DNA from: a virus
Lineage: Duplodnaviria > Caudoviricetes
Reading direction: 5' to 3' (one strand)
IMG/VR virus record: IMGVR_UViG_3300027710_000022
Coordinates: 1-64,000 of that record
Length of the DNA: 64,000 nt
Shown: positions 15,635 to 64,000 of the stretch, in pieces
How positions within the stretch are numbered: position 1 is the first letter of the stretch
How the letters are laid out: the number at the start of each line of letters is the position of its first letter
Program-made: the position numbers and the translations under genes
The notes under the pieces: generated by a model
What the model saw: the letters and a program-made list of their open reading frames with translations, nothing else
The model's database searches: none
Told to the model about the DNA's origin: nothing

Positions 15635-15638
15635 TAAT

Positions 15639-16697: not shown

Positions 16698-16704
16698 TAA
16701 TATT

Positions 16705-17531: not shown

Positions 17532-17537
17532 GATACC

Positions 17538-17620: not shown

Positions 17621-17668
17621 TTTAAATTATTTAACAAATCCGTATATTTATAAAGATACAATATCAAA

Positions 17669-18052: not shown

Positions 18053-18056
18053 TATT

Positions 18057-18084
18057 AAAAACCCTCATTAATGAGGGTTTTTTT
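18057..18084 (+). terminator. Intrinsic terminator
   Basis: AAAAACCCTCATTAATGAGGGTTTTTTT. Confidence 0.8.
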
Positions 18085-18303: not shown

Positions 18304-18315
18304 TATTTATACTAT

Positions 18316-18924: not shown

Positions 18925-18925
18925 C

Positions 18926-25291: not shown

Positions 25292-25525
25292 ATTGTTATA
25301 AATAGTGTAATACAAAATAAAAATTTAAACTTTTTTAATATATCCTATCTATTATCCCAAATTAATTTTTTAATGACAAATAGTCATGTGAAATTTAACC
25401 ATTTTGGGTAACAAGTTCTTATTTATTTGTGTATGGAAAAAAATAATATAATCGATTCCAAACTTTCTTATATGGTTATTTTTCCGTATATTTTACAAAA
25501 CAATAAATTCTTAAACAAAAAACGA

Positions 25526-33795: not shown

Positions 33796-33803
33796 AAAGT
33801 AAT

Positions 33804-34571: not shown

Positions 34572-34596
34572 TAATTATAAAAGATTTAAATCACAT

Positions 34597-36117: not shown

Positions 36118-36118
36118 A

Positions 36119-36739
36119 ATGAAGATTAATCTTTTTACCGGATGGTATTATGTACCTAAAAATCCTATAAGGGAGGACGAGTTTAATTTTTGTTATGAAA
36201 AAAATAAAAAACTAAACTTTGGTGAGTATTATATTGATAGAACTCAAAGACCGACTTATAATTCATTTTTAAACGAAATGAAAAAATATCCAAATGATAT
36301 TAACATAATAGCAAATCCTGATAATTTTTTTGACGAGAAATTTTTAAATGATGTATATGAACTATACTCCAAATATGAAAACAAAGAAAAATTGTGTTTA
36401 GGGTTAACAAGATGGAACTATATCAATGAGGGAGATGTAAGATATTTTAATGCCAAGGACTCACAAGATATTTTTATATTTTACGGTTCAGTAGATTTAA
36501 ACGTTGGCGAACAAATACCTTTAGGTAGACCCGGATGTGATAATAGATTGGCGGCAATATTAATAAATGATTTAAAAATGGATGTCTTTAACCCAAGTTT
36601 AGATTTAAAATATTATCATTATCACCCATCTGACGATTCAACAAGAACCTATTTAAATGAAAAATTAGAAAGGACTGAATTTGTTATGGGACCTCATGAA
36701 TTTATATATTCATGTAGATTAAATGATGTTAAAAAATAA
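36119..36739 (+). CDS. Glycosylation-cluster protein, putative glycosyltransferase
   Basis: IIANPDNFFD, SQD..IF, LGRPGCDNR.A...NPS. Confidence 0.5.
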   Translation: MKINLFTGWYYVPKNPIREDEFNFCYEKNKKLNFGEYYIDRTQRPTYNSFLNEMKKYPNDINIIANPDNFFDEKFLNDVYELYSKYENKEKLCLGLTRWNYINEGDVRYFNAKDSQDIFIFYGSVDLNVGEQIPLGRPGCDNRLAAILINDLKMDVFNPSLDLKYYHYHPSDDSTRTYLNEKLERTEFVMGPHEFIYSCRLNDVKK

Positions 36740-45395: not shown

Positions 45396-45805
45396 TGGTG
45401 GAGGTGACGGGACTCGAACCCGTGTCTTTCCTGTTCAACAATAAATGACTACACGTTTATTCAATTAGTTCACAACTGACAAATATTTGGTTCCTATTTT
45501 GACATCGTTACCAACAACTGTGTCGAGTTCACTTTTGTTACGGTAGTCCTCTGAACGAGACCGTTTGTTTCTTTTTGGGTAGAAACCACACCTTAAGTAC
45601 TTCTGTTCCTAGGTTATATGTACGTCGACCCGATTGTAGTTTCGCCTTAGGCTACTGCTACGTTAGAAGTTGCAAGAATACCTGCTACTTCCATGTTGTT
45701 GTAAACGTTGCCGTCTAAAATTTTCCACCGTAGATTTAAGTCATAGATGAAGTCTGACTACGTGCCACTTACCCCTGATACCTGAAATCAATGCCAGGCA
45801 CCCCC
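45396..45805 (-). ncRNA. ssrA: tmRNA
   Basis: Acceptor stem GGGGGUG/CACCUCC with G3-U70, A73 and encoded CCA; T-arm GGUUCGAGUCC; internal tag ORF 45712-45647 encodes GNVYNNMEVAGILATSNVAVA*. Confidence 0.92.
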
Positions 45806-49961: not shown

Positions 49962-50154
49962 ATATAACACCCTTTTATCAGCCGAAGCCTCACATAACCT
50001 TAGTGTGGAACCACAGGTAGGTGTCATGAATGATTACCACTGAGAATGTAGATTTTCACTAACTCGATTTAGCGGTCTCTATGGTAATTTTTTTGATGGA
50101 TGAAAAACATCTATTTTTCTTGCGGATTTCCATCGGAATCCCATAATTTAAAAG

Positions 50155-50228
50155 TGGACCAGATAGGAATCGAACCTATTACCTTCACATTATGAGTGTG
50201 CCGCTCTAACCGAGTGAGCTACAAGTCC
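50155..50228 (-). tRNA. tRNA with CAT anticodon (probably Ile2, otherwise elongator Met)
   Basis: GGACTTGTAGCTCACTCGGTTAGAGC...CTCATAA...GGTTCGATTCC cloverleaf. Confidence 0.85.
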
Positions 50229-50299
50229 AATTAATAGGTGGGGCTTAATTATTTAACTCTTTACCACCATTAAGTCTTTAATGCTTTAGACACCTATCG

Positions 50300-50373
50300 T
50301 GATCCCGTTTGGATTCGAACCAAAGACCCACATCTTAGAAGGATGTTGCTCTATCCAACTGAGCTACGGAACC
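50300..50373 (-). tRNA. tRNA-Arg(TCT)
   Basis: Anticodon arm ACATC CTTCTAA GATGT. Confidence 0.95.
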
Positions 50374-50489
50374 AAAGTAATGTAATGTCTGTACGGTTTG
50401 TATCTAATCCACACCTTTGTACGTGTTTCAAAAGTTTCCATTTCATACGTAGCGTCTGTTCCGTCACTTATTTCTAAGTCATTACATTG

Positions 50490-50574
50490 TACCTGGGGCG
50501 GGACTTGAACCCGCACGGGACTTTCGCCCCAACAGATTTTAAGTCTGTCATGTATACCATTTCATCACCCAGGC
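50490..50574 (-). tRNA. tRNA-Leu(TAA)
   Basis: Loop CTTAAAA, long variable arm. Confidence 0.95.
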
Positions 50575-50592
50575 ATTTGTTTTTCCAATACA

Positions 50593-50640
50593 TCAAAGAA
50601 CTATAATCAAATATAAGAATAAAAAATGATATAAAAAAAC
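50593..50640 (-). promoter_or_regulatory. Host-type -7 promoter box plus boxA-like element
   Basis: TATATTTG at 50608-50615, then AGTTCTTTGA at 50593-50602. Confidence 0.65.
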
Positions 50641-50691
50641 CCCGAACATTTTTTTTAGTTTGTTCGGGGGAATTAACTGAACTAAAAATGT

Positions 50692-51141
50692 TTATTTTAC
50701 TTTATACGATAACCCAAGTCCTAATGTAAAATCACTACCAACTAAATTACCGATAGTCCATAAATTTATGACATTACTTGGTCTAAGTGGATTGTACATT
50801 ATAAGAAAATTTGGTTTATTACCATTAATTGTTGGTTGTAACCCAAATCCAATAATTGCTTTGTCCTCTTTTAATTCTCTAAGAACACCAAACTTCATAT
50901 TATCAGATAAAGTTCCTGTATTGGTGTTGACACCAGGAGGAAGTGTTATTCCACCATTTTGGCTTTTCAATTCACCATATGGAAGACCTGCATAAAACCC
51001 CCAACCTTTTTTCATAAAACCACCTGTTATATAACCATCTGATGGGCCACCTTTTCGAGTGGCGGTTATAAACCACTCTTGCCCATTTGCCACGACTTCT
51101 ACTCCCAAAAGTAACGTTAGCACTAAAAAAATTTTTTTCAT
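50692..51141 (-). CDS. Exported small beta-barrel-like outer-membrane protein
   Basis: Signal peptide, alternating aromatic strands, C-terminal LGLGLSYKVK. Confidence 0.55.
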   Translation of the reverse strand: MKKIFLVLTLLLGVEVVANGQEWFITATRKGGPSDGYITGGFMKKGWGFYAGLPYGELKSQNGGITLPPGVNTNTGTLSDNMKFGVLRELKEDKAIIGFGLQPTINGNKPNFLIMYNPLRPSNVINLWTIGNLVGSDFTLGLGLSYKVK

Positions 51142-51440
51142 TTTTTTGATTTGGACAAGGAGTCTTCCGTTGCCCATTTTTCTTTTAACTTTGCTACCTT
51201 CTCAATCTTTACAATTTTACCATTCAATTTGGTAATCTCGTCCGCGATTTCTTTGGTTTTGACGGCCCTGCTAGCGAAATTTTCATCTGTTACTTCAACC
51301 CATTCAATTTTTCTTTCCAGAGATTTAATCTCTTTCTTTATTTGATTGACTGACTTTCTTTCGTCTGAAAGACTTGGGTCGATAGATGATGTTAATGTAT
51401 TAAAAAATAGCATTAACGATAGTGTGATTTTATCTATCAT
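51138..51440 (-). CDS. Exported or anchored coiled-coil protein
   Basis: Hydrophobic N-terminus followed by heptad repeats. Confidence 0.6.
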   Translation of the reverse strand: MIDKITLSLMLFFNTLTSSIDPSLSDERKSVNQIKKEIKSLERKIEWVEVTDENFASRAVKTKEIADEITKLNGKIVKIEKVAKLKEKWATEDSLSKSKK

Positions 51441-51518
51441 ATATTATAAATATTAATAATATGATAAATATACAGAATAAAATATTGTAAATCAATATCT
51501 TAATATAAAAAAATTTTG

Positions 51519-51590
51519 TACTCGGTACGGGATTCGAACCCGTGCAACCACCGTGAAAGGGTGGTGACCTAACCACTAGTCGAACCGAGC
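51519..51590 (-). tRNA. tRNA-Glu(TTC)
   Basis: CCACC CTTTCAC GGTGG. Confidence 0.95.
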
Positions 51591-51826
51591 AAGTAATCAC
51601 TCAAATGGGTATTTGTTATAATATCACAATTGTTGCACTATACTTTGGTTAATTACTCCGTCTGTATCCAACAGCTTTATGTTGGCTTATAATTGGCTAC
51701 TTTATTATAACTCACATTTTTATTTGTGATTAATTAAGAACTAACATTGCTATCAGGGTTTAAATGGTTCACAGATAAATCCGGAATCACCACCTACCGA
51801 TTTTACGGTATCTTAGTTAATTCTTG

Positions 51827-51911
51827 CAGAGAGTTAGGGATTCGAACCCCAGATACCTTTCAGTATGCCAGTTTTCAAGACTGGTGCCATCAACCACTCG
51901 GCCAACTCTCT
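51827..51911 (-). tRNA. tRNA-Ser(TGA)
   Basis: CCAGT CTTGAAA ACTGG, long variable arm, G73. Confidence 0.95.
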
Positions 51912-51998
51912 AAAATTGATTCTAACTCACCTTAAGTTGCACCATCCGAGTCACTGCTCTGGTTGACAAAGTCCTCGTTGAGTTAGTCTCAAAAAGTT

Positions 51999-52208
51999 AC
52001 AGGTTTTTCGTACCATCTATGTACATCATGACCGAAGTTTGGTTGGATTTACATCACGTCTCAGCAAACTTTACTCGGTGGTTACATTTTCGTATTGGGG
52101 TAATTATTCCCGACTTATAGTAACTCTACCCTCACCGCCCTACCTCGCGAGTCAGACGGATCTTTTGGGATTCATAGACAGTGGGGTTACACCACCGTCG
52201 TCACCTGT
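51999..52208 (-). ncRNA. Candidate ~210-nt multibranch structured RNA between tRNAs
   Basis: Closed by ACAGGU/ACCUGU; internal GACGGUGG/CCACUGUC, UCUAUG/CAUAGA, CGGUG..GUUAC/GUAAC.CACCG, GUUUG/CAAAC. Confidence 0.5.
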
Positions 52209-52210
52209 TG

Positions 52211-52284
52211 AGCCCAAACTCAGATTCGAACTGAGGACCTACTGATTACAAATCAGTTGCTCTGGCCAGCTGAGCTATTCGGGC
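52211..52284 (-). tRNA. tRNA-Thr(TGT)
   Basis: ACTGA TTTGTAA TCAGT. Confidence 0.95.
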
Positions 52285-52418
52285 TACTATGGAAAACAGA
52301 AGATGGGGGTGTGGACATCTGTTTTTATGATTGGCGTTTCTCGCTATTCGCTAGCCCCGTTAAATCCCAATCAACCATTTGTTTTACAAAGATAAAAAAT
52401 AATTTTAGATATTCCAAA

Positions 52419-53216
52419 TTATTTATTATCTTTTATATATTTTTTTAATATTTCAAATTCATTTTTAACAAATTCGGGGTCATAACTTCCCATATCTTTT
52501 ATTATATATGGTTCATATCCCATTTTTTTAATCTCATTAATTTTAATATTGTCACGATTTTTAACTTGTTTAAGTGAATGTTTTTTAGTTATTTTTTCAT
52601 AATGCCATTTACCATTCCACATAATTGCTAATTTATAGTCATTAATTATTACATCGGCATCCCATCCATTAAACATATTTTCATTAGATAAAACATCGTT
52701 ATATTCTTTTTTACAAAGTTCAAATAATAAAATTTCATTTTTACTTCTTTTACCTTGTTTTGATTTTTTACCACCCGCAGATCCCGAGCATTTGTATGAA
52801 CAAAATCTTCCTTTTAAATTTTCTTTACGTTCAAAATGTTTACCACAGTTATCACATCTACGTATTGTATATTTTATTTCTTTTTTGGGTCTCGGAGGTT
52901 TGTTTTTTAACGAAACAGATATTTTAATTCTTGTTTCTTCATTAAAATCTCTACTATTTGAACATTTATAAGAACAATGTTTTGGGTAATCCCCTATTGA
53001 AAATATATGTTCAGTTACATTTATTTTATATTCTTTATCACATTTTACACAATTTAATATCTTTTCATTTTTAATTTGGTTTTTTGTAATTAACGATTTT
53101 TCAATCATTAATTTTTTATTTGGGTTCATAGAACAATTAGTCACGTGAGCTCCTGCTTGTTGTTTCTTTTCAAAAACAAACGTTTCATTACAAAACTTAC
53201 ATTTATATTCCATCAT
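52419..53216 (-). CDS. Homing-endonuclease-like protein (Zn-finger repeats plus Vsr/DUF559-like nuclease) inside the tRNA array
   Basis: CKFC, HCSYKCS, FCSYKCS; SKNE...WDADVII...AIMWNGKWHY...RD..K. Confidence 0.7.
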   Translation of the reverse strand: MMEYKCKFCNETFVFEKKQQAGAHVTNCSMNPNKKLMIEKSLITKNQIKNEKILNCVKCDKEYKINVTEHIFSIGDYPKHCSYKCSNSRDFNEETRIKISVSLKNKPPRPKKEIKYTIRRCDNCGKHFERKENLKGRFCSYKCSGSAGGKKSKQGKRSKNEILLFELCKKEYNDVLSNENMFNGWDADVIINDYKLAIMWNGKWHYEKITKKHSLKQVKNRDNIKINEIKKMGYEPYIIKDMGSYDPEFVKNEFEILKKYIKDNK

Positions 53217-53254
53217 ACTCATTAATATAATTAATAAATATGACAAAATCAAAG

Positions 53255-53341
53255 TTGCGGGTGCAGGATTCGAACCTGACGTGTCGTTTTACCGACGTGT
53301 GCTTATGAGACACCTGAGTTTGACCACTACTCTAACCCGCA
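53255..53341 (-). tRNA. Atypical tRNA-Met(CAT) with fMet-like acceptor stem and long variable arm
   Basis: TGCGGGT/ACCCGCA-A, loop CTCATAA, extra arm GTCG GTAAAA CGAC; 87 nt. Confidence 0.7.
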
Positions 53342-53346
53342 AAATG

Positions 53347-53417
53347 TTGTCCCTCGTGGATTCGAACCACAACTAGATGGACCAAAACCACCTGTACTAC
53401 CGTTATACTAAAGGACA
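53347..53417 (-). tRNA. tRNA-Gln(TTG)
   Basis: GGTGG TTTTGGT CCATC. Confidence 0.92.
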
Positions 53418-53422
53418 ATATG

Positions 53423-53502
53423 TACCCAAGGTCGGACTCGAACCGACACGCCTTTCGACACGGTTTCTAAGACCGCTGTGTATACCATTCCACCACTCGG
53501 GT
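53423..53502 (-). tRNA. tRNA-Leu(TAG)
   Basis: GCGGT CTTAGAA ACCGT, variable arm. Confidence 0.95.
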
Positions 53503-53509
53503 ATTATTG

Positions 53510-53581
53510 CACGCATGTAAGGACTCGAACCTTCATCTTCGGTTTTGGAGACCGAAATTCTACCAATTGAACTACACACGC
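53510..53581 (-). tRNA. tRNA-Trp(CCA)
   Basis: TCGGT CTCCAAA ACCGA. Confidence 0.95.
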
Positions 53582-53587
53582 GTTTTG

Positions 53588-53659
53588 CGTTGATGATAGG
53601 ACTCGAACCTATAATCGTTCGGTTAACAGCCGAAAGCTTCACCATTAAGCTACATCAAC
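53588..53659 (-). tRNA. tRNA-Asn(GTT)
   Basis: TTCGG CTGTTAA CCGAA. Confidence 0.93.
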
Positions 53660-53664
53660 AACTG

Positions 53665-53739
53665 TAGGGTAAAGAGGACTCGAACCTCCATGATACCTTG
53701 CTCCCAAAGCAAGTGACTTAGCCATTAGTCCATTACCCT
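53665..53739 (-). tRNA. tRNA-Pro(TGG)
   Basis: CTTGC TTTGGGA GCAAG. Confidence 0.9.
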
Positions 53740-53905: not shown

Positions 53906-54089
53906 TGAATTTAGTTTTATCTTTTTCTTTTACAAAGATAACAATAAATATGTATATAATCAAGAAAAGTTAATAAAGATTTTTTTTGACTAGTTGCCGG
54001 AACGTGATATTTATAAGGGACAAATAAAAATTATCTCTCTCCTGACTGTTTTCATATGAAAATTGCGGGAGCATTTTAAAAAATTTCAT

Positions 54090-54740
54090 ATGGAAAGAAT
54101 TAGAACATTATCACTTAGTTTAGGCAATAAATTAGCCCACGCATTTTTCTTATTAGTTGGGGTTTGGATTGTATTCGCTCTATGCTTCCAATTATTCTTC
54201 GTTTATTTAGAATTTTCCGGTAAACATGAACTACAAAGAAATGTTGTAAATTGGATTGAATGGAGAATCGATGGTACATTCAAAAATAATCCTGAAAATA
54301 TATGGTACGATGCCGACGACCATATTTGGGTTGAAAGTGTAACCAATGAGGTTAAAATCGGTAAATTAGCTGGTAATAGAAATTTAGCATTTGGAGTTAA
54401 AAACATCTTAGAAGAGTTTTTACAAGAAAAGGGCTACGATTTATCGGCATCATCTCCGTACAAATTACAAGTACAAATTGTTTATTTAGATGTTCTTACA
54501 ACAAAGAAGAACATATCTGTTTTCCATTCTGGTGAGGAGGAAGTGGTTATTAGACTGAAGGGAACATTGACAAAAGACGGTAAAAAGGAAAAAGAACTTA
54601 TTGTTGAGGAGTCGTCATCTGAGGTATCTATGTCTACTCTAATTGTTGATGAAGGAGGGTCGTTTAATCAAACTTCTTTAAGTAACGCACTCAAAAAAGC
54701 CAGTGAAAAACTAATAAATAAATTAATGGTTAAAAAATAA
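54090..54740 (+). CDS. Membrane-anchored CsgG-like protein
   Basis: N-terminal TM helix; GVKNILEEFLQEKGYDL...C-terminal FNQTSLSNALKKA, matching the 61982 protein. Confidence 0.45.
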   Translation: MERIRTLSLSLGNKLAHAFFLLVGVWIVFALCFQLFFVYLEFSGKHELQRNVVNWIEWRIDGTFKNNPENIWYDADDHIWVESVTNEVKIGKLAGNRNLAFGVKNILEEFLQEKGYDLSASSPYKLQVQIVYLDVLTTKKNISVFHSGEEEVVIRLKGTLTKDGKKEKELIVEESSSEVSMSTLIVDEGGSFNQTSLSNALKKASEKLINKLMVKK

Positions 54741-54746
54741 AAAAAA

Positions 54747-56414
54747 ATGAGAAATCTATTAATAATAATCGGGGTAATAACACTATCCCTAATTACGTTT
54801 AAGTCAAATGCACAATTAACCGTTAACCAATCGGTAACTCCAACAACGGGGTTAAAAGTTGGAGATACAATTTCAGTAAAGTATACGGTTGCAAGAGGTA
54901 CAACCACACCTCGTTATTTTTGGTTAAGATACCAATATAATAACAAAGCATTAGCATATGTTTCAACTACATTCTCACAAGGAACATCGGTTCAGACATT
55001 CTATACAGGTTGGTCGTCATATAAATTCACTGCGAGTACTGCGAATAGTATCACCGCTAAAGATTTATATGCTCAATATTTGGTATCACCTTGGGGTTAT
55101 GCCGCTAACGCAGATTGGAGTGTTGGTCAATTAACTGTTCAAAGAACTGATGCATCAATCAACGGAGACATTGCAACTCAAAAATATGTAATTAAGGATT
55201 TGGGTGCATATACTGATATTCACAAATTAGACTTATCATATTCAATTGACGCAACAAGTGCCAACATTACACCAATAACAACCGACCCAGGTACAATGTC
55301 TTTAACAAATGTAACGGGTAACACATCTCAATTTAAAGTAAGAGTTTTATTCCCAACAGGATACGATATTACCGCTCATAGTGTTTCATTAATACCATTA
55401 ACAACCGCAGGTGAAGTTAACTGGACGGCACAAGCAATTGCTTCTAAGGTATTGGATGCAAGTGGTGAGGCAATATTTACAACTGAAACAAAAGTGGGAG
55501 ACACATTTGCAGTATTTGTAAATGCAGCATTACAAAAAACGTTTATGAATAACATTATAACTGTATCTGACGCATATAGAGCATTTTTAGGTATTTCACA
55601 AGTGGATATATCAGGTACACAAACATATTTCACAAGACCAATATTACAAAAGAAAGTTGGTTTAATTACAAAAGATAAAACAACATTTAGTGAAAGTGAT
55701 TCATATAATTTATTTGCACATGTAATGGGAATAGATGTTAAGTCATCTGCTATGATTCCATCAAACGCAGCACCTGTAAATGGTGTTGTAAATTATAAAT
55801 GGTATAATGGTTTATTAAATCAAAGTTGGTTAGATGGGACACCGACATATAAAACTAAGGTAACATCTTCAAATCAAGCGGTGGACATGGTATTTGCATG
55901 GGGTGGTGATTTAGATTGGTCTCATTCGTCAGATCCTGACGTAATTGCCTCGAGAATAGCTTCGGGAAATTATGCAAATTCAATTAATCCATCTGAAAAT
56001 GTTATTAAAACAATGTCAACAACAACAATGTCATACACACCAACAGTTGAAAAGGCGACATTGAGTTTGAATTCCACAATTGCCAATAATAAAGTTGTAT
56101 TAACAGGAACATTAACTAAAGAAGGTTTGGCTGGTTTAGAAGTTATATTACAATATGATAATTCTAAATTGACTTTTGATAATATTGCATTTGATGCTGG
56201 CGCCAATGTAACTAACTTCTCAACAAATGAGGACGGTAGATTAACATTTGGTTCAATGGACCAAACAAAAACTGCAAGAATTAAAGTAGGTACACCTTAT
56301 AAATTAACATTTATACCAAAACAAACTTTAACGAATACAGCTGGTTTATTTTATACTGTTTTATCAGATGCCGTTGATGGTGGTGGAAACAAAATAAATT
56401 TAATAGTAGAATAG
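54747..56414 (+). CDS. Exported protein with cohesin-like and dockerin-like modules
   Basis: Signal peptide; VGDTISV..Y.YNNKALAYV; TVSDAYRAF; C-terminal LQYDNSKLTFD...LTFGS.D. Confidence 0.6.
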   Translation: MRNLLIIIGVITLSLITFKSNAQLTVNQSVTPTTGLKVGDTISVKYTVARGTTTPRYFWLRYQYNNKALAYVSTTFSQGTSVQTFYTGWSSYKFTASTANSITAKDLYAQYLVSPWGYAANADWSVGQLTVQRTDASINGDIATQKYVIKDLGAYTDIHKLDLSYSIDATSANITPITTDPGTMSLTNVTGNTSQFKVRVLFPTGYDITAHSVSLIPLTTAGEVNWTAQAIASKVLDASGEAIFTTETKVGDTFAVFVNAALQKTFMNNIITVSDAYRAFLGISQVDISGTQTYFTRPILQKKVGLITKDKTTFSESDSYNLFAHVMGIDVKSSAMIPSNAAPVNGVVNYKWYNGLLNQSWLDGTPTYKTKVTSSNQAVDMVFAWGGDLDWSHSSDPDVIASRIASGNYANSINPSENVIKTMSTTTMSYTPTVEKATLSLNSTIANNKVVLTGTLTKEGLAGLEVILQYDNSKLTFDNIAFDAGANVTNFSTNEDGRLTFGSMDQTKTARIKVGTPYKLTFIPKQTLTNTAGLFYTVLSDAVDGGGNKINLIVE

Positions 56415-56415
56415 T

Positions 56416-58701
56416 ATGAGGAAATTATTAGTAATATGTTTTTTACTAATCTCATTTTTAGGGTTCGGACAGAGTGTATCTGCTCCGGACTCTAAGTCGT
56501 TTATACCGTCTACAATTGGGCAAGATGCAAGTGGGTTTAGTTTAAGTGGATTTTCTACGACATCTAATTTGTTAGCATCAATAAGTTTAATCAACCCATC
56601 AACAAATACTACGTTCTACCTTAATACAACAACGGGTTTAACCGCAGCAAGTGGATTTACTTTAACAGGTAATAAAACTCGTTTAGTGGTAACAGGTACA
56701 ATGGCTAGTATCAATAATGCATTAGCATCTTTAAAAATAACCACAGGCTCAGTAGTTGGTAATGTTCAAATATCGGTAGCGGCAACTGTAAACCCTGTTG
56801 GATATTTTTACAATGGTGTAAACGGACACTTTTATAGACCAATATCAACAGGTACAACATACACCGGAGCAAGAGCCGCATCATTATTAACAACATTCAA
56901 AGGACAGACAGGATATTTAGTAACAATAACATCAGCATCTGAAAATGCTTTTATATTTTCCAACGTACCACAAGCTAATATATGGTTTGCGGCAACCGAT
57001 GAAGTTAAAGATGGGACTTGGGTAATTGACGCGGGACCTGAAAAGGGGACGGTAATGAAAACCTCAAATGGACAAACCGCCGGAAATATTCCTGGTGTTT
57101 ATAATAACTGGGCATCAGGTGAACCAAATGGTAATAATGGTAGTGAGAATTATGCAGTAACAAACTGGAACAGTCAACCAACATGGAATGATTTATCAAA
57201 CAATTGGAACAATCCTTATATAATTGAATACGGAACTTGGACTAACCCTGATGATGCAACATTTACTGAATTTTATACCAATAGTGTAACTCACTCAAAC
57301 GGAGAAGTATTAAGAGCATCATTTAATGTTGATTTTGGAACTAATATAGATGAAACTAAATTTTCAGCAAAAGGATATACATACACAAATAATACTTGGA
57401 ATGTAGTAAACGGAACCGCTAAACAATTAAGTGGTTTAGGTAAAGTTGATTTAACGAGTTTATTAGATACTTCTAAAACTGCAAATGGAGTTAAAGCGAC
57501 AACATCCGCTGGACAAGTTGAATGGGCAATAATAAATCCATATGACGCCAATTTAGGTGGACATCAATTATTAATAGACGAAAGAGAATTTGATGGAACG
57601 GGTGTTTCTCCAAACAATGTAACTTCAATTAAATTATTTGATATATACGATGGACCAGTTACCGTTAGTAATGTAAGTGGTTTTTGGAAAACCTATATAA
57701 TGTCAGGTAATTTAACAACCAAAATAACTTCATCAACATTTCAATCTCAATTAAGATTACAAGATGGTTGGTATGGAACGAAAGCTGAATTTACTTTTTC
57801 ACCAACGATGACATATAAACCACACGGAATGGAATTATCTCATTCTAATCAAAACGAACTAAACACATTATATAATAGTATTGTTACAGTATCGGATGTT
57901 TTTTTAGCGTTTAAGGAATTGGCGGATGGTGGGATATTTGGAAATCAAAGTGGGATGGGATTAACAAATGGTATTCAGTATTTGAACGCAGATGTGGACG
58001 GTAATGGGGTATTTAATGAAAGTGATACATATAAATTATTACAACATCTTACAGGAGTTCAATCACTTTCACAATCCACGGCATTAACTTATTTGATGAA
58101 GTTATATAACAAATCCGATTATGATGGGATAACAACATCAAATTGGGCGACTCAATTTAATTCAACTCGTAATCTACTTCCATTTACATTGAGTAGTTTG
58201 AATAACACGTATAATTTAAGTGTAACTTGGTTGGGTGATGTAAACCTTTCACATTCAGCACAGCAAAGTGTAAGTGGTGTTGCAACTAATTCATATAGGA
58301 CAATGAGTTTAACAACTAATTCAGTTTCAAATGAAATTAACGCATCACTTATGGGTGAAAATATAGGTGGTAAAGTTGTAGTAACTATATCAATAGACCC
58401 GTTACAACAAGAGTTAGTTGGTGCACAATTCCAATTAAATTATGATAATACGATATTAGAATTCCAAAAGGTAGAGTTTATAACAAAAGGTAACCCAACT
58501 AATTTTGGAACCGATAAAGGTACCTATGTAAAAATTGGGTCTCTAATTGGTGATGCATCAACTACATTGGATAAAACAACGGAATATAAAATAACATTTG
58601 TACCAAAAATTGGAATAACCGGAATATTAGGATTGACTTCAATATCAACAACTGATGCGGTTAATAAAAATGGAACACAATTAAAAGTGAAAGTAAACTA
58701 A
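56416..58701 (+). CDS. Exported protein: C-type lectin domain plus dockerin-like and cohesin-like modules
   Basis: GYLVTITSASENAFI...IW.AATD...NWASGEPN...WNDL...YIIEYG; ADVDGNGVFNESDTYKLLQHL; GAQFQLNYDNTILEF. Confidence 0.7.
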   Translation: MRKLLVICFLLISFLGFGQSVSAPDSKSFIPSTIGQDASGFSLSGFSTTSNLLASISLINPSTNTTFYLNTTTGLTAASGFTLTGNKTRLVVTGTMASINNALASLKITTGSVVGNVQISVAATVNPVGYFYNGVNGHFYRPISTGTTYTGARAASLLTTFKGQTGYLVTITSASENAFIFSNVPQANIWFAATDEVKDGTWVIDAGPEKGTVMKTSNGQTAGNIPGVYNNWASGEPNGNNGSENYAVTNWNSQPTWNDLSNNWNNPYIIEYGTWTNPDDATFTEFYTNSVTHSNGEVLRASFNVDFGTNIDETKFSAKGYTYTNNTWNVVNGTAKQLSGLGKVDLTSLLDTSKTANGVKATTSAGQVEWAIINPYDANLGGHQLLIDEREFDGTGVSPNNVTSIKLFDIYDGPVTVSNVSGFWKTYIMSGNLTTKITSSTFQSQLRLQDGWYGTKAEFTFSPTMTYKPHGMELSHSNQNELNTLYNSIVTVSDVFLAFKELADGGIFGNQSGMGLTNGIQYLNADVDGNGVFNESDTYKLLQHLTGVQSLSQSTALTYLMKLYNKSDYDGITTSNWATQFNSTRNLLPFTLSSLNNTYNLSVTWLGDVNLSHSAQQSVSGVATNSYRTMSLTTNSVSNEINASLMGENIGGKVVVTISIDPLQQELVGAQFQLNYDNTILEFQKVEFITKGNPTNFGTDKGTYVKIGSLIGDASTTLDKTTEYKITFVPKIGITGILGLTSISTTDAVNKNGTQLKVKVN

Positions 58702-59594
58702 TGAAAAAACTATTATTAATCATATCGTTAGTTTTGATTGGATTTGTATCAAATGCACAAATACAAAAACCCGATACATTACAACTATCGGCAAAAGAAT
58801 TATTTGGAGAGAGTGATGATTGGAACGATGTGGGTATATTACAATCCTATGTTAATTTTTCAAAAGATGTACTTTCATCCTCAAACTTATCAGTTGGTAT
58901 AATTGGAAAACAAATATCAACTACTCTTAATTTGGGTTACAATAAATCATCTATGAATGGGCAGTGGGGACATACATTCGCGGGATCAATAAATCCTATA
59001 TGGAACTACTATGGTGTGGGTTATGGCCTTAGTAAAAATACTGAAAAAAGAACTACTACATTACAATCATTTTATTCAACGGATTTTGATTTCCAAAAAG
59101 ATATTACATTATCATTTATCGATGTATTCAGAACTAAAAAGTTTGGAACATTCGGTTATAGTGTAATTGCGTCAAAATCATTTTGGGAGACTTATCAGGG
59201 TGAGTGGGAAGGAAAATATACGGTAGATGAAAATGGTGATTTTAAAGATTTAATATACCCAATGATACCGGCATCAAGTGAAATAAGTTATAGAGGTATG
59301 GTGATGTACACATATACATTGAAAACAAAGAGAGTAAACATATCACCACAAATATTTGCAATGAGCGATGTATATAAAGTATTTAAAGATGGTACTGAAT
59401 CGGATTTAGCATATATAGACGATTTCAATTTGGACTTATATTATGGAACATCTATTGATTGGAAAATAACTAAAAGGTTCATTTTGAATACTAATATTAG
59501 ATATAACACAACTTTTGACAAATTGAGCGAATCGGTTGGGTATAAAAAGAGTAATCCAATAATGTTTATGATAGGAACAAACTTTCAATTTTAA
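58701..59594 (+). CDS. Outer-membrane beta-barrel protein
   Basis: Signal peptide, amphipathic aromatic strands, terminal IGTNFQF (BAM-type signal). Confidence 0.65.
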   Translation: MKKLLLIISLVLIGFVSNAQIQKPDTLQLSAKELFGESDDWNDVGILQSYVNFSKDVLSSSNLSVGIIGKQISTTLNLGYNKSSMNGQWGHTFAGSINPIWNYYGVGYGLSKNTEKRTTTLQSFYSTDFDFQKDITLSFIDVFRTKKFGTFGYSVIASKSFWETYQGEWEGKYTVDENGDFKDLIYPMIPASSEISYRGMVMYTYTLKTKRVNISPQIFAMSDVYKVFKDGTESDLAYIDDFNLDLYYGTSIDWKITKRFILNTNIRYNTTFDKLSESVGYKKSNPIMFMIGTNFQF

Positions 59595-59597
59595 CAT

Positions 59598-59939
59598 ATG
59601 AAAAAAATACTATTCATATTTGTGATTTTACTATGGGGTTGTACTAAGATGGATATCCCAACCCCAACTTCCCCTGTTGAAAAAATATTCAATGTGGGTG
59701 AAAGTAGTGTAACAAATGGTCAATCAATTTTTTTTGATTTAACCTCTAATACTGTACATTATTTAATTTTAATCGATAAAAATAGTGGACAAGTAATAAG
59801 TCGAGAAAAATTTAATGGTCAAATAGGTGAAAATGAAAAAAAGATTTATACCAATTCACTACCCAAGGGATATTTATATTTAGTACTTGAGGATGTGGAT
59901 AAAAAAGAATTAAAAAAGACAACAATAATAGTAAATTAA
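59598..59939 (+). CDS. Small lipoprotein with Ig-like/T9SS-CTD-like fold
   Basis: Lipobox LWGC; YTNSLPKGYLYLVL. Confidence 0.55.
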   Translation: MKKILFIFVILLWGCTKMDIPTPTSPVEKIFNVGESSVTNGQSIFFDLTSNTVHYLILIDKNSGQVISREKFNGQIGENEKKIYTNSLPKGYLYLVLEDVDKKELKKTTIIVN

Positions 59940-59942
59940 AAA

Positions 59943-60323
59943 ATGACAAAAATGAAAAAGATTCTCTTATTGGTATTGGTATCCACAATTTTAACAGGAT
60001 GTTATAAGGACGATATCTTACCCGCACCTCAATCAATATCAGAAGACCTTAAAATGGCAAGTTCTGTTGGTATTAAACTACAATCAGCATTTGTCACTTC
60101 AGAAGTGGCTATGAACGTTAAAATTGAAACCGCAGGTTCGGTAACAATTAAAATATTTGACATTTCAAATAGGGTGGTATCTAAAGAAACAATGAATGTA
60201 ATTGCCGGTGATAATTTATTGAAGGTTTACACAAACGCATTACCATCATCAGCATACAGAATTGGATTGTTTGACTCTAACGGTAAACAATTAGGAATTA
60301 CAGATTTTAATAAAATACAATAA
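59943..60323 (+). CDS. Small lipoprotein with Ig-like/T9SS-CTD-like fold
   Basis: Lipobox LTGC; GSVTIKIFDISNRVV...GDN...YTNALPSSAYRI. Confidence 0.6.
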   Translation: MTKMKKILLLVLVSTILTGCYKDDILPAPQSISEDLKMASSVGIKLQSAFVTSEVAMNVKIETAGSVTIKIFDISNRVVSKETMNVIAGDNLLKVYTNALPSSAYRIGLFDSNGKQLGITDFNKIQ

Positions 60324-60343
60324 TTATATAAAAACAAAATACA

Positions 60344-60661
60344 ATGTCAGAAGAAGTAGAAAATTCAAACGATGGGACTTTATCAGGATTGAAAAAAACT
60401 ATTATTGGTGTAATAACAACAGCAGTAATGGGATTAGGAACTTGGGGAGTAACCCAAATAACGGGTGGTGGTGATGAACCTGCACCGGTACAACAGGCAG
60501 CACCTGTAATTAACATTACAAACTCAAACCAACAGGCACAACAAGCGTCAGGTGGTGGTAAGACAGTTGTAATTAAAGAAAAAGAAACAATTAAAGAAAA
60601 ACCAGCACCGGTTAAGAAAAAAGAAGGTGATGAGTTTAAAGAAGAGGCTCCTAAGTGGTAA
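60344..60661 (+). CDS. Single-TM protein with P/Q/K-rich tail
   Basis: LKKTIIGVITTAVMGLGTWGV followed by a low-complexity region. Confidence 0.65.
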   Translation: MSEEVENSNDGTLSGLKKTIIGVITTAVMGLGTWGVTQITGGGDEPAPVQQAAPVINITNSNQQAQQASGGGKTVVIKEKETIKEKPAPVKKKEGDEFKEEAPKW

Positions 60662-60662
60662 T

Positions 60663-60815
60663 ATGGAACAGGGGTTAAGTTTTATATCAGTGGTTTCTAT
60701 ATCTATGATAGGAATAGCAATCGATTCACCAATATGGTTTTTATCATCATTCGTAATCGGTTGTACATATCTAGTTATTAGAGGAAAGAAAAAGGGCTGG
60801 CGTTGGGAAAGATAA
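60663..60815 (+). CDS. Small membrane protein
   Basis: 50 aa, two hydrophobic segments, basic tail. Confidence 0.5.
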   Translation: MEQGLSFISVVSISMIGIAIDSPIWFLSSFVIGCTYLVIRGKKKGWRWER

Positions 60816-60837
60816 AAATTTAGTAAAACAATTAAAA

Positions 60838-61467
60838 ATGTCAGAAAAAAAAGAACAACCGAGTGGTTTTAAAGATTTATTGAGTAATATGATGAAACGC
60901 AGATGGTATATTACTGCGTTAGTATTGGGTGGATTTATGTTTATTATAGGAGGAATGTTTTTCGCCATACTAAACAAATCAGAAATAGCGGGAGAATGGA
61001 AAGAACTTCTTTTATTGTTATTAGGTGCTTTCATTGGTTCTTATGGTAAAATCATTGACTATTGGTTTAGTGATACCGATAAGGATAAGATGTTAGTTCA
61101 GAAAATGGATGAGGAAGATGGTACATCATTAAGTAACACAGCTGATATGCCTGTAACTCCACCGAATAATAGTCCTTTAATTCCTGAATCATTTCAAACA
61201 GCATTAGAGAATTCAAAAGTTGAAAAGATAAACGATACGTTTGAACAAGTACCGACTACACAACCAAGAACTGGTGTGGAGGTTGATGAAGATGGTGATG
61301 GTACAATGGATGGTATTGATTTTGATGGTGATGGTAAAATTGACATGTATTTCGCACACAGACAATGTGAACACGTTTGGGGAGATTTAGACGGAGATGG
61401 TACTGAGGAATGTTTGAAATGTGGTAAGATAAAAGATGAAATTGCAGAAATGCATATGGAAGGATAA
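60838..61467 (+). CDS. Two-TM protein with acidic Ca-binding-like DxDGDG repeats
   Basis: DEDGDG, DFDGDG, DLDGDG; CEH...CLKC. Confidence 0.65.
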   Translation: MSEKKEQPSGFKDLLSNMMKRRWYITALVLGGFMFIIGGMFFAILNKSEIAGEWKELLLLLLGAFIGSYGKIIDYWFSDTDKDKMLVQKMDEEDGTSLSNTADMPVTPPNNSPLIPESFQTALENSKVEKINDTFEQVPTTQPRTGVEVDEDGDGTMDGIDFDGDGKIDMYFAHRQCEHVWGDLDGDGTEECLKCGKIKDEIAEMHMEG

Positions 61468-61492
61468 TAAATAAAATTAAAAATTGACAAAA

Positions 61493-61741
61493 ATGAAATT
61501 TAAAGAATGGGTTATCGAACTTTTCAAAGATGAAAGGGGATCAATATCGGTTAAGCCGGTAATAGCAATGGTAGGTGCAATGTTCCTATGTATTACGATG
61601 GTATTAAATTCGTTCTCTCACGCGGATTTCGCACCGTCACCTGAATTAGTTAATGCTGTGATGTTAATCACAGGAATTGGTATGGGTGCTGATACGGTGG
61701 ACAAGTTCACACACAAAAAGAAAGACGAAATGGAAGGTTAA
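61493..61741 (+). CDS. Two-TM holin-like membrane protein
   Basis: DERGSISVKPVIA...two TM helices, charged C-terminus. Confidence 0.55.
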   Translation: MKFKEWVIELFKDERGSISVKPVIAMVGAMFLCITMVLNSFSHADFAPSPELVNAVMLITGIGMGADTVDKFTHKKKDEMEG

Positions 61742-61745
61742 TATT

Positions 61746-61771
61746 AAGGGGGGATAAAACCCCCCTTTTTT
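61746..61771 (+). terminator. Intrinsic terminator
   Basis: AAGGGGGG ATAAAA CCCCCCTTTTT. Confidence 0.75.
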
Positions 61772-61800
61772 AATAAAAATTTATTTAAAATTAATTAAAA

Positions 61801-61971
61801 ATGGAAGAAAATAATGAAATCGTTACAATTATTGAAGAAATAATTACGGAACCCGAAATTGTCGAGGTTGTTGAAGAAGTAATTTCAGAACCTGAAATTG
61901 TTGAGGTTGTTGAAGAAGTAAAAAATAAAACATTTAAAAGAAAATCACACCCAAAAAATTGGAAGGGTTAA
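61801..61971 (+). CDS. 56-aa acidic repeat peptide with basic tail
   Basis: EPEIVEVVEEV twice, then KNKTFKRKSHPKNWKG. Confidence 0.5.
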   Translation: MEENNEIVTIIEEIITEPEIVEVVEEVISEPEIVEVVEEVKNKTFKRKSHPKNWKG

Positions 61972-61981
61972 AATAGAATGT

Positions 61982-62704
61982 ATGAAAAAATTATTAATAT
62001 TATTAAGTGTTCTTTTACTAAGCGTTGTTGCCGTTAGTGCACAAACAATTGGTAAAACTAAAACAGAAGAGTATAAGGCAGACTTTGAAAAGAAAAGAGA
62101 TATAAGTGCTTACATGGATTACGATGGACCCCAAATTCCAATTCAAATATTAAAGGCCGGAATTTCTGATGAAATGTATGAGATGTATCCTGAATTAAAA
62201 GAAAAACGTGTTGGTTTAGGTGTTGCCAATATTTCAATGGAATACCTTGAAAACTTAAACAGATTCAAATTTACCGAAGATAAAACGGAAATTAAGAATC
62301 GTATGGTAAAACAATTCCAAGCATCTGCAGCAGGCATATCTGAAAACAAATTAGATGGTCGTGGTAAAATCAATTTGGCGGAGTATTTTGTCACTATTGA
62401 GTGTTATGACTACTCGGTATCAGAAGATGAAACCATTAACCTAAAAGACGGTATTAAAGACAATATGGTAACTCGTATAGGTCTTCAGGTTAGATTTACA
62501 AATGCTGAAACTGGAGTAGTATTCGGTGGATCAGGTTTAGGTGAAGCCACAACAAAAAGAGAACTAACCTTATTGTCAGATGCAACGATAGACCCAATTA
62601 AGTTTAATCAATCAACAATATCAATTGCAACAAAAAAGGCTTTAGATGTTGCTTGTGCTAACATTTTAGATAGAATGATTAAAAAGGGTATTTTCACAAA
62701 ATAA
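61982..62704 (+). CDS. CsgG/HfaB-family exported protein
   Basis: Signal peptide; LGVANI..EYL...NRF...E...AEYFV...YDYS; IGLQVRF.NAETG.V..GSG.G.A. Confidence 0.65.
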   Translation: MKKLLILLSVLLLSVVAVSAQTIGKTKTEEYKADFEKKRDISAYMDYDGPQIPIQILKAGISDEMYEMYPELKEKRVGLGVANISMEYLENLNRFKFTEDKTEIKNRMVKQFQASAAGISENKLDGRGKINLAEYFVTIECYDYSVSEDETINLKDGIKDNMVTRIGLQVRFTNAETGVVFGGSGLGEATTKRELTLLSDATIDPIKFNQSTISIATKKALDVACANILDRMIKKGIFTK

Positions 62705-62726
62705 AATCTTAACATAAAGAATTATT

Positions 62727-62756
62727 AAAAAGGGGGTATAATAACCCCCTTTTTTT
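62727..62756 (+). terminator. Intrinsic terminator
   Basis: AAAAAGGGGGT ATAATA ACCCCCTTTTTT. Confidence 0.75.
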
Positions 62757-62778
62757 ATATTTATATAAAAACAAATCT

Positions 62779-63597
62779 ATGAAAACTCTCTTATTTGTAT
62801 TATTATTAATACCGTCCCTGATATTTGGACAAGTGTCAAATTGGAGAACCAATCCTCCACAACAATCAACTCCACAAACAAGAGTGGAAGTGCCTAGAGT
62901 ACAACAAAACACTACACAAACAAACGATATAAGTAGATGGAGAAATAATTCACCTAGACAATCACAACCAGACCCTCGTGGAAGAGTTAGAATTCAAAAT
63001 TGGGGCAGACCTAATCAATTTGGTTATTATTGGGGTAATTGGGGATGGTACCAACCATTCCCATACATATGGTATGATGATTTTGGGTGGAGACAAAGAA
63101 GTGTGATTCGTGTATATGAAAATGGTAAAAGAGACACTATTAGAAAAGAAAAGGTATATACATCGTTTGGTATTGGTCACACAAACAATAAACAAGCATC
63201 ATTTTGGGGAACTATCGGAGGTAAGAAAGGATATTTCATTATGGATTATGTGATGAGTTATGATATAGATAGAAATCAGTATTTTCCAAATGGTAATTTA
63301 GTTATTGCAGATTTTCCTGTTAGTAAAGAGATATTCACAAAAGAACATACACTTTATTTAGGAGGTGGAAAGAGATTCAATAAATTCGGAGTACATACAA
63401 TGATAGGATTTGGTAACGAAATTCAAAGATATCAGGGTAAAGATGACTTAGGTGGTATATCATTTCCAAAATCAAATATAAACTTTACCACATTCAAAGT
63501 CGGACTAATAAGAGATTTCAAATGGTTCACATTAAAATTAGATACTGACCCAATTAGAAAGTATTCTCAAATATCAATCGGACTGAACAATAAATAA
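62779..63597 (+). CDS. Exported protein with Q/P/R-rich linker, W/Y/G-rich segment and beta-barrel-like C-terminus
   Basis: Signal peptide; YYWGNWGWYQP; terminal SQISIGLN strands. Confidence 0.6.
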   Translation: MKTLLFVLLLIPSLIFGQVSNWRTNPPQQSTPQTRVEVPRVQQNTTQTNDISRWRNNSPRQSQPDPRGRVRIQNWGRPNQFGYYWGNWGWYQPFPYIWYDDFGWRQRSVIRVYENGKRDTIRKEKVYTSFGIGHTNNKQASFWGTIGGKKGYFIMDYVMSYDIDRNQYFPNGNLVIADFPVSKEIFTKEHTLYLGGGKRFNKFGVHTMIGFGNEIQRYQGKDDLGGISFPKSNINFTTFKVGLIRDFKWFTLKLDTDPIRKYSQISIGLNNK

Positions 63598-64000
63598 TGA
63601 AAAAATATATTATCTCTCTCCTAATATTATTTTTTTGTGGTAAGTCTTTTGGTCAAAGTACAATAACACAGACTTACATTGACCCATGTGATAATAAAGT
63701 TTACGTGGTTACAATTCCATTTGGTCAAAATCAAACAATTGCAATTATTAGAGGTAAATCAAGAATTGTCACATTAGCGGATATTAATAGTGGAGCGTTC
63801 CAATTATGGGTAAATTCTATATTTGCAACACCGTGTTCGACACAAGATGATGCAATTTTCTTAGCTCAACAAGCAGCGGCAAGAGCGGCGGCAGATGCTG
63901 CAGCTAAAGCGGCCGCGGATGCGGCGGCGGCTGCCGCGGCCAAAGCGGCTTCAGATGCTGCAGCTAAAGCTGCGTCAGATGCCGCAGCCGCTAGTGCCGC
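63597..64000 (+). CDS. Exported protein with Ala-rich repeats (3' truncated by window edge)
   Basis: Manual translation MKKYIISLLILFFCGKSFGQSTITQTYIDPCDNKVY...AAADAAAKAAADAAAAAAAKAASDAAAKAASD. Confidence 0.7.
   Translation, partial: MKKYIISLLILFFCGKSFGQSTITQTYIDPCDNKVYVVTIPFGQNQTIAIIRGKSRIVTLADINSGAFQLWVNSIFATPCSTQDDAIFLAQQAAARAAADAAAKAAADAAAAAAAKAASDAAAKAASDAAAASA

Follow-up and report, generated by a model that had tools for sequence, protein, structure and literature searches.

Gene block at the end of the window

The DNA analyzed here, a stretch of 64,000 nucleotides (referred to below as the window), corresponds to positions 1 to 64,000 of IMG/VR virus record IMGVR_UViG_3300027710_000022 (Duplodnaviria; Caudoviricetes), which derives from a lake-dwelling T4-like phage of very large size whose hosts are Flavobacterium-type bacteria. 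From position 54090 to the window end at 64000, it carries a block of 14 open reading frames (ORFs; g1–g14) on the + strand, whose products include a CsgG-like protein, a C-type lectin with cohesin-like and dockerin-like parts, and putative outer-membrane barrels. All 14 ORFs are co-oriented, and neighboring ones mostly abut or overlap by 1–4 nt (for example, 56414/56416, 58701/58701 and 63597/63597). A simple hydropathy test, with ORFs of at least 100 amino acids (aa) in the first 54 kb of the window as control, found an N-terminal hydrophobic segment in 12 of 14 block ORFs versus 5 of 55 upstream ORFs (Fisher p 5e-8). In this test, the transmembrane (TM) segment of g7 was weaker and g11 lacked any hydrophobic segment. 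By eye and with simple rules, we assigned signal-peptidase-I type signals to six products (g2, g3, g4, g12, g13 and g14) and TM anchors to five (g1 and g7–g10), and lipoboxes are present in g5 (LWGC) and g6 (LTGC). An earlier note, made from these letters alone, had described about 14 co-oriented, mostly abutting genes with export or membrane signals, and this description held. None of the ten module products scanned (g1–g6, g9 and g12–g14) matched any PHROGs family. The GC content of the block (0.30–0.35) is the same as that of the remaining window.

The product of g12 (61982..62704, +) is a secreted 240-aa protein with a predicted CsgG fold and no lipobox. Its AlphaFold2 (AF2) model, with a predicted local distance difference test score (pLDDT) of 78, shows long strands at residues 135–153, 157–174 and 180–195. 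A Foldseek search with this model returned CsgG first (4uv2, E 5.7e-8), and VIA-align gave Z scores of 13.4–12.2 to eight CsgG entries with 171–193 residues aligned, the runners-up being LptE, PelC and similar lipoproteins (Z 8–11). Compared with the membrane-bound form of CsgG, the model aligned over 193 residues with a root-mean-square deviation of 3.4, and the best match in BFVD was a phage CsgG. Along its whole length, the g12 family profile also aligned with E. coli CsgG (hhalign 90.3%, E 1.5e-6, 226 columns). The protein itself had no Pfam match at E 0.1, including PF03783; in its family alignment, PF03783 was matched by 13 of 35 members (best 1.9e-17) and LpoB by 6 of 35. Among 1.8 billion representatives, 216 relatives were found, down to 25% identity, and the distant ones were lipoproteins of ~230 aa. 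Family profiles and structural model thus both place g12 in the CsgG superfamily, as a divergent member. The earlier note had proposed two CsgG-like proteins, encoded at 54090 and 61982. The fold check on the second came out positive (the Foldseek E value of 5.7e-8 and the VIA-align Z score of 13.4 given above), and the first instead resembles YajG/Lipoprotein_16.

Several features set g12 apart from E. coli CsgG. Its signal peptide ends in AVSA, followed by QT with no Cys, and the same is true of all close phage orthologues and of gp017 of the Flavobacterium phages vB_FspM_immuto (hereafter immuto); the lipobox Cys is present in distant g12 relatives and in E. coli CsgG. The hairpin loops of g12 are 5 and 8 residues shorter than those of E. 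coli CsgG, and hairpin 1 has a highly charged tip. In a low-identity alignment, residues Y69 and P70 of g12, nearly invariant and invariant in the family, respectively, pair with Y51-P52 in the constriction loop of CsgG, whereas CsgG N55 corresponds to K73 of g12 and F56 to a gap, and these two constriction residues are not kept. Also, no Pfam match to the curli partners CsgE, CsgF or curlin was found among the module products.

The first gene of the block, g1 (54090..54740, +), encodes a 216-aa protein with an N-terminal TM anchor, in place of a lipobox, followed by a YajG/Lipoprotein_16-like domain (PF03923) and the FNQTSLSNALKKA helix at its end. The ATG at 54090 agrees with the orthologue alignment. 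The match of g1 to PF03923 (E 6.2e-5, 23.2 bits) is below the cut-off of 25, and all 14 orthologues examined matched this family at E up to 0.01 (best 3.8e-6); PF03923 was found in 30–52% of the members of the Atlas neighbor clusters of g1. These matches indicate that g1 is probably a YajG-like domain on a membrane anchor. The C-terminal FNQ(T/S) helix, which the earlier note had seen in the products of 54090 and 61982, is indeed common to both (BLASTP E 0.003). It is, however, all that g1 shares with g12 (hhalign 12%), and g1 was rejected as a second CsgG.

The next two genes encode large secreted proteins with a common tail. g2 (54747..56414, +; 555 aa) has a signal peptide, a beta-rich N-terminal half with no Pfam or PDB sequence match anywhere in the protein, and a C-terminal dockerin-like plus cohesin-like module recognized by its homology to the g3 tail (hhalign 99.6%, E 1e-24, for the C-terminal ~290 aa of both). 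g3 (56416..58701, +; 761 aa) comprises a C-type lectin domain (residues ~137–271), a middle region, a dockerin-like segment (~485–547) and a C-terminal cohesin-like domain. Its Lectin_C (PF00059) match scored 27.1 bits against a cut-off of 22.6; 19 of 20 orthologues matched as well, and PDB profile matches were the animal C-type lectins CEL-I, SP-D and mincle. The EPN (236–238) and WND (257–259) motifs are invariant in 20 orthologues, as is E244. In C-type lectins, EPN is associated with mannose/N-acetylglucosamine (GlcNAc)/fucose-type ligands. The lectin claimed by the earlier note was therefore borne out; it is of the C type and its sugar site is intact (EPN and WND kept). Among 20 g3 orthologues, 8 matched the Cohesin family (PF00963; best 2.5e-5), which g3 of the window did not, and 1 matched Dockerin_1 (PF00404; 0.0013). 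Residues 526–537 of g3 form one canonical DxDxNGxxxxxD Ca-binding loop, DVDGNGVFNESD. With these family matches in g3 orthologues and the tail common to g2, the cohesin-like and dockerin-like modules suggested before are present. The occurrence of both parts in one chain would permit head-to-tail chaining. Regarding a host origin of this tail, only one marginal match was found among 201 sampled Bacteroidota genomes, and a search for the tail in longer proteins, for which the length class was poorly chosen, found none.

Three further products are candidates for outer-membrane barrels. g4 (58701..59594, +) is a secreted, beta-rich 297-aa protein and a paralogue of the C-terminal domain of g14 (hhalign 85%, E 5.8e-6, 165 columns; BLASTP E 6e-5). 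Its orthologues are either 83–95% identical or absent, and its nearest Pfam-named Atlas clusters were all outer-membrane barrel families (0.93–0.94; leads only). g14 (63597..64000, +) is cut by the window end after a signal peptide, a small N-terminal domain with two Cys and an Ala-rich linker; in relatives it has 473–525 aa, further linkers rich in Ser and in Lys/Glu/Thr, and a beta domain resembling g4 at its C-terminus (a full-length copy is present in the related locus L002). The alignment of this C-terminal domain also took in immuto gp018. g13 (62779..63597, +), a secreted protein of 272 aa, has a Q/N/P/R/W-rich N-terminal region and a C-terminal beta-rich domain. Its N-terminal region (62779–63100) contains two SxWR-N-x-P-x-Q repeats, whose Ser, Trp and Arg are kept without exception across 24 orthologues, and an aromatic-rich GYYWGNWGWYQP stretch follows these repeats. 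No match of g13 to Pfam, PDB, PorP/SprF or CsgF was found, and a role as CsgF analogue was rejected (profile versus E. coli CsgF, hhalign 0.3%). Aromatic C-termini occur in g4 (NFQF), immuto gp018 (LTF) and a homologue in another phage lineage, L111 (VFF). Together with the signal peptides and language-model neighbors, these C-termini make it plausible that g4, g13 and g14 are outer-membrane barrels. A PorP/SprF identity (PF11751), examined with an alignment of 14 Bacteroidota proteins, was undetectable with the shallow query profiles available (hhalign 7.5% for g4, 1.4% for g13 and 1.9% for the g14 C-terminal domain), and there was no Pfam or NCBIfam match. PDB profile searches with the g4, g13, g2 and g1 alignments gave nothing meaningful, and an amphipathic beta-strand score of our own was dropped, as it did not separate PorP and a TonB-dependent-like barrel from soluble controls.

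The remaining products are small. g5 (59598..59939, +; 113 aa) is a lipoprotein with a small beta-sandwich domain, and g6 (59943..60323, +; 126 aa) is a lipoprotein paralogous to it. The beta-sandwich resembles DUF3244 and, below threshold, the sorting domain of the type IX secretion system (T9SS; Por_Secre_tail), for which g5 and g6 scored 16.7 and 14.4 bits, respectively, against a cut-off of 27. In a joint g5/g6 set, DUF3244 was matched by 14 of 39 members and Por_Secre_tail by 6 of 39, and both were below threshold for the window's copies. Occurrence of the other genes was read from a tblastn comparison of the 14 products with 80 fetched loci. g7 (60344..60661, +; 105 aa; 68 of 80 loci) combines a single TM segment with an extended tail rich in Pro, Gln, Lys and Glu, and g8 (60627..60815, +) is a 62-aa membrane protein with a TM segment found in just 14 of 80 loci. 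g9 (60838..61467, +; 209 aa; 69 of 80 loci) has two hydrophobic segments and an acidic tail with three DxDGDG loops and a Cys cluster, and its N-terminal 103 aa are 69% identical to a neighbor of the scaffold gene in L111 (E 3.5e-42). g10 (61484..61741, +) is an 85-aa membrane protein with a TM segment and a median identity of 89% in relatives. Finally, g11 (61801..61971, +), an acidic 56-aa ORF with a tandem EPEIVEVVEEV repeat, was found in 5 of 80 loci and is for this reason probably not a gene.

Distribution of the module and comparison with known systems

Gene order was the same in most of the 80 loci, with g4, g8, g11 and g13 variably present. Relatives of g12 were detected in 546 IMG/VR stretches, on contigs of up to 335 kb, and in 5883 protein clusters at 90% identity. 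One complete relative of 335,630 bp (G204) has a T4-type Gp23 capsid gene, from which the block is separated by ~20 kb. The possibility raised in the earlier note that the block is a host chromosomal insert does not agree with its synteny in dozens of related IMG/VR phage contigs. Instead, the block is a conserved phage module, a set of genes that is syntenic across a very abundant clade and is partly common to two other phage lineages. It tolerates insertions at fixed points. In the complete 335-kb relative, two extra ORFs (357 and 247 aa) are located between the g10 and g12 orthologues (7910–9991 of locus L004), and the g3 orthologue there is 108 residues longer via a middle insertion.

Cultured relatives were limited to immuto (160 kb, NC_055915; host Flavobacterium sp. 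LMO8; Gp23 present). Among 50,697 phage records, none matched the block by megablast or g1 and g3 by tblastn, and immuto phages were the sole match in tblastn of g12. The immuto genes gp013–gp019 represent a reduced version of the same module. They encode a C-type lectin protein (gp013; E 1.4e-12 to g3), a cohesin protein (gp015), a g7-like protein (gp016; 43% identical, E 2.5e-14), a protein 55% identical to g12 (gp017), a g14-like protein (gp018; N-terminal match, E 1e-4) and a g1-like protein (gp019; weak, E 4e-5). The immuto module differs in its 160-kb genome, in the lack of counterparts of g4, g5, g6 and g13 detectable by BLASTP, in a T9SS tag on the cohesin protein, and in a secreted nuclease, gp012, encoded directly upstream. 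In its annotation, all module genes are hypothetical except gp012, gp013 and gp015. The set is located among replication genes. In the third lineage, L111, replication genes are followed, in this order, by genes for a 647-aa cohesin/dockerin scaffold, a g9-like protein, a nuclease, two small membrane proteins, a CsgG-like protein and a barrel-like protein. Here the CsgG-like protein has a lipobox (35% identity), and the barrel-like protein has weak BLASTP similarity to the gp018 C-terminus (E 8e-4). The module is kept in at least three lineages of large Bacteroidota phages and is thus under selection for its maintenance.

These lineages differ with regard to the likely export route of the scaffold. 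When tested with the T9SS type A C-terminal sorting domain models (PF18962/TIGR04183, cut-off 27 bits), the immuto scaffold (37.8 bits) and the L111 scaffold (40.3 bits) were found to end in this domain. Such a true tag makes the host T9SS the likely exporter of the scaffold in these two phages, and as both still keep the CsgG-like gene, the CsgG-like protein must serve something else there. In contrast, no T9SS sorting domain above the cut-off was detected in the complete relative G204 of the window clade, where the only match resembling such a C-terminal domain (CTD-like) was a g6 orthologue with 15.1 bits. The idea that g5 and g6 are detached copies of the scaffold tag was rejected (hhalign 0.6% to the L111 tag).

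Genes of the csgG type have been reported in aquatic myophages, as the earlier note stated. Partial curli csgG/csgF clusters occur in pelagimyophages (HTVC008M group) and in OM43 phage Melnitz, and putative roles proposed for phage csgG include aggregation or "sibling capture", uptake and lysis control (PMC7029224, PMC9004378). Similar to these clusters, the block described here belongs to a T4-like aquatic myophage and has a CsgG-superfamily gene in a small operon for exported proteins between replication and structural regions. However, their CsgG is a clear Pfam CsgG paired with CsgF, whereas g12 is too divergent for PF03783, has no lipobox and has no CsgF-like partner. The lectin, cohesin/dockerin proteins, YajG-like protein, putative barrels and CTD-like lipoproteins that are its partners here are not reported for those clusters. 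The closest cellular relatives of g12 are non-curli CsgG-family lipoproteins of the Fibrobacteres–Chlorobi–Bacteroidetes (FCB) group, found in Bacteroidota, Ignavibacteriales, Cloacimonadota, KSB1 and Fibrobacterota metagenome-assembled genomes. With ~230 aa, they align with g12 over the full length at 25–31% identity and have a YPEL-x-EKRVG motif in common with it, and they score above the Pfam CsgG cut-off (28.6 and 33 bits versus 20.8). They differ from g12 in containing a lipobox and in being encoded next to caspase-domain, CHASE2-cyclase and hydrolase genes, which are not curli genes. Finally, g2 and g3 resemble cellulosome-type cohesin-dockerin scaffolds and T9SS type A cargo as exported proteins that carry a cohesin-like domain and a dockerin-like Ca loop. 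They differ in lacking enzymes, in the lectin head, in the union of dockerin-like and cohesin-like parts in one polypeptide, and in the absence of the T9SS tag in the window clade. In the literature library searched, we found no paper that describes a lectin-cohesin-CsgG-like module or discusses the module genes of immuto.

Possible role in the envelope of the infected cell

We consider it somewhat probable that the block serves T4-like phages of Flavobacterium-type Bacteroidota as a conserved accessory operon, and that the host Sec system delivers its products not to the virion but to the infected cell's envelope, which they remodel. In such a scheme, g1 and the small proteins g7–g10 would reside in the inner membrane, and g12 could form an outer-membrane-associated ring, as CsgG-fold proteins do, although without a lipid anchor it would probably need partners. 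g4, g13 and g14 would be inserted as outer-membrane barrels, the long linker of g14 spanning the periplasm. Through their dockerin-cohesin tails, g2 and g3 might dock mutually or chain head to tail, and the resulting glycan-binding layer could hold cell-surface sugars of the mannose/GlcNAc type. This would probably alter the surface of the infected cell, and it could mask receptors against superinfection and against progeny loss on debris, or stick cells together. Besides the export signals, this envelope-remodeling proposal is favored by the synteny of the block in phage contigs, the T4-type capsid genes of G204 and immuto, the CsgG fold and homology of g12, the lectin with its invariant motifs, the common dockerin-cohesin tail and the T9SS tags on the immuto and L111 scaffolds, as well as by the non-structural setting of the module (tRNAs here; replication genes in immuto and L111) and by the presence, in the same window, of genes for a TonB-dependent-receptor-like barrel, lipopolysaccharide (LPS)-type glycosyltransferases and a secreted nuclease.

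Several observations weigh against this proposal. E. coli CsgG requires its lipid anchor to reach the outer membrane (CsgG C1S), and g12, which lacks such an anchor, may stay periplasmic. No recognizable outer-membrane export tag was found on g2 and g3 of the window clade, both of which end in the cohesin-like domain; with the T9SS tag absent, the lectin layer could be periplasmic and not on the surface. Also, the cohesin and dockerin matches of the window's own g2 and g3 are below Pfam thresholds, and the barrel folds of g4, g13 and g14 stay putative (the AF2 model of g4, built from a shallow alignment of 19 sequences that were 83–95% identical, had a pLDDT of 30.5 and was unusable). The purpose, whether exclusion or aggregation, is purely inferred. 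A more specific form of the proposal, which we put forward only tentatively, is a virus-encoded surface structure, made by T4-like phages in infected Flavobacteriia and consisting of a cellulosome-style cohesin-dockerin chain with a Ca-dependent lectin tip, held by phage outer-membrane barrels and a CsgG-fold ring, that might bind host-type glycans and thereby block superinfection or progeny loss, or capture neighboring cells.

The earlier note had proposed a dedicated export and display machine for lectin-tipped scaffolds. Export of the lectin and cohesin proteins by the CsgG-like protein is not supported in the two related lineages whose scaffold has a genuine T9SS tag. It appears doubtful to us that g12 is a dedicated, type VIII-like outer-membrane secretion pore that exports these proteins for display on phage barrels. 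Its long beta-hairpins align with those of membrane-bound CsgG and are nearly of CsgG length, its Y69-P70 pair aligns with Y51-P52 of CsgG, and g2 and g3, having no T9SS tag in this clade, need another route. However, the CsgG-like gene is kept in relatives whose scaffold carries a true T9SS tag, and g12 combines the lack of a lipobox with the loss of N55 and F56 and a highly charged tip of hairpin 1. No CsgE, CsgF or curlin-like partner was detected when module products were compared with Pfam and g13 with CsgF. Besides, the subunits that CsgG passes are small and unfolded, unlike the multidomain proteins g2 (555 aa) and g3 (761 aa).

We regard as unlikely that the block is a lysis or egress machinery, in which small membrane proteins would act as holin- or antiholin-like factors, lipoproteins and anchored proteins as spanin-like links, and the CsgG-like ring as an outer-membrane lesion. 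The small membrane proteins of the block (four or five), its pair of lipoproteins and its periplasm-spanning linker protein would fit this explanation, and a role of CsgG in lysis timing was proposed for phage Melnitz (PMC9004378). On the other hand, no endolysin gene was found within or beside the block in the window, the annotated endolysin of immuto is ~8 kb away behind unrelated genes, and the ten module products scanned against PHROGs (g1–g6, g9 and g12–g14) had no match to lysis families. To our knowledge, lectin and cohesin proteins have no role in lysis. Even less credible is the view that the proteins are virion parts, such as tail fibers or decoration proteins, whose hydrophobic N-termini are not export signals; we consider it highly improbable. 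Lectin-like and immunoglobulin-like (Ig-like) domains are common on phage fibers and capsid decoration proteins, and in G204 the block is ~20 kb from the capsid gene, but the signal peptides and lipoboxes are typical of Bacteroidota, the CsgG-fold protein has lipoprotein relatives in cells, and the scaffold of relatives has a T9SS tag. Moreover, no structural PHROG family was matched, and in both immuto and L111 the module is located among replication genes.

The module is very common and touches two questions, namely, the role of phage CsgG-like proteins and the re-dressing of host surfaces by lytic phages. Presence or loss of the T9SS tag by lineage provides a natural experiment on the export route, and a cultured pair with a reduced module (phage immuto on Flavobacterium sp. 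LMO8) makes functional tests feasible. If true, a lectin-tipped cohesin-dockerin surface structure would represent a new type of envelope organelle, encoded by phages and widespread in lakes and seas.

Transcription signals and neighboring genes

A promoter-like TATTTATA element is located upstream of g1 (54008..54015, +), at the likely start of a g1–g12 operon, and another lies 13 nt upstream of g13 (62758..62765, +). Both had been noted before; the site at 62758 was correct, and the one given as 54007 is actually at 54008. Between g12 and g13, an intrinsic-terminator-like hairpin (62732..62757, +; GGGGG...CCCCC followed by T8) separates the two genes, and a comparable GC hairpin with a T run was present 3' of g12 in 27 of 80 loci. 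The two TATTTATA sites and this hairpin suggest two transcription units, g1–g12 and g13–g14. In the whole window, TATTTATA occurs 28 times versus 14 expected, a number that was reached in none of 100 shuffles. For 22 of the 28 sites, an ATG opening an ORF of at least 50 codons was found within 30 nt on the same strand, compared with 7–12% of random positions. The distance to the ORF start is often just 4 nt (sites at, for example, 7500, 11177, 18304, 40202 and 51445), and if TATTTATA acts as a -10-like promoter element, a large number of transcripts would have little or no leader. The element is kept upstream of 10 of 14 g1 orthologues and 25 of 50 g13 orthologues (at 13–20 nt). As a candidate late promoter it found no support: it is absent upstream of the capsid gene in G204 and immuto, though this gene is internal to an operon.

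The phage origin stated in the earlier note was supported by the rest of the window, with a tRNA array, a transfer-messenger RNA (tmRNA) gene and HNH endonuclease genes, and by the T4-type Gp23 capsid gene of close relatives. The array, 12 tRNA genes on the - strand (50154–53739), ends 350 nt before g1; the tmRNA gene (45396–45805, -) encodes a tag peptide ending in VAVA. Two HNH/homing endonuclease genes, of a kind typical of T4-like genomes, are at 7512–8939 (+; phrog_559, E 1e-37) and 9531–10964 (+; phrog_2598 plus HNH families). A cluster for glycan-modifying enzymes (32545–39089, +) includes a glycosyltransferase (phrog_24687, E 2e-179), a GT25 LPS-type glycosyltransferase and a 788-aa TylF methyltransferase/HtrL_YibB fusion. 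The 1127-aa ORF at 25427–28810 (+) has CarboxypepD_reg and OMP_b-brl_4 domains (E 9e-49) and is predicted from these to be a phage-encoded TonB-dependent-receptor-like outer-membrane barrel, that is, a further host-envelope protein of the same phage. Adjoining it, and 24 kb upstream of the g1–g14 block, is a gene for a 200-aa nuclease-like protein with a signal peptide (29428–30030, +). This protein shares 41% identity with the L111 nuclease (E 1.4e-43), and the latter shares 50% with immuto gp012, whose annotation is that of a NUC1/endonuclease G-type nuclease. Unlike the distant copy of the window, the nuclease genes of immuto and L111 are in or beside the module. Breakdown of superinfecting DNA would suit such a secreted nuclease.

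Beyond g14, the related locus L002 has convergent genes at 13265–18464 (-), including those for a 672-aa ClpB/ClpA-type AAA+ chaperone-like product and a 392-aa product, followed by a small Hsp20-like ORF at 18578–18988 (+), all read by eye.

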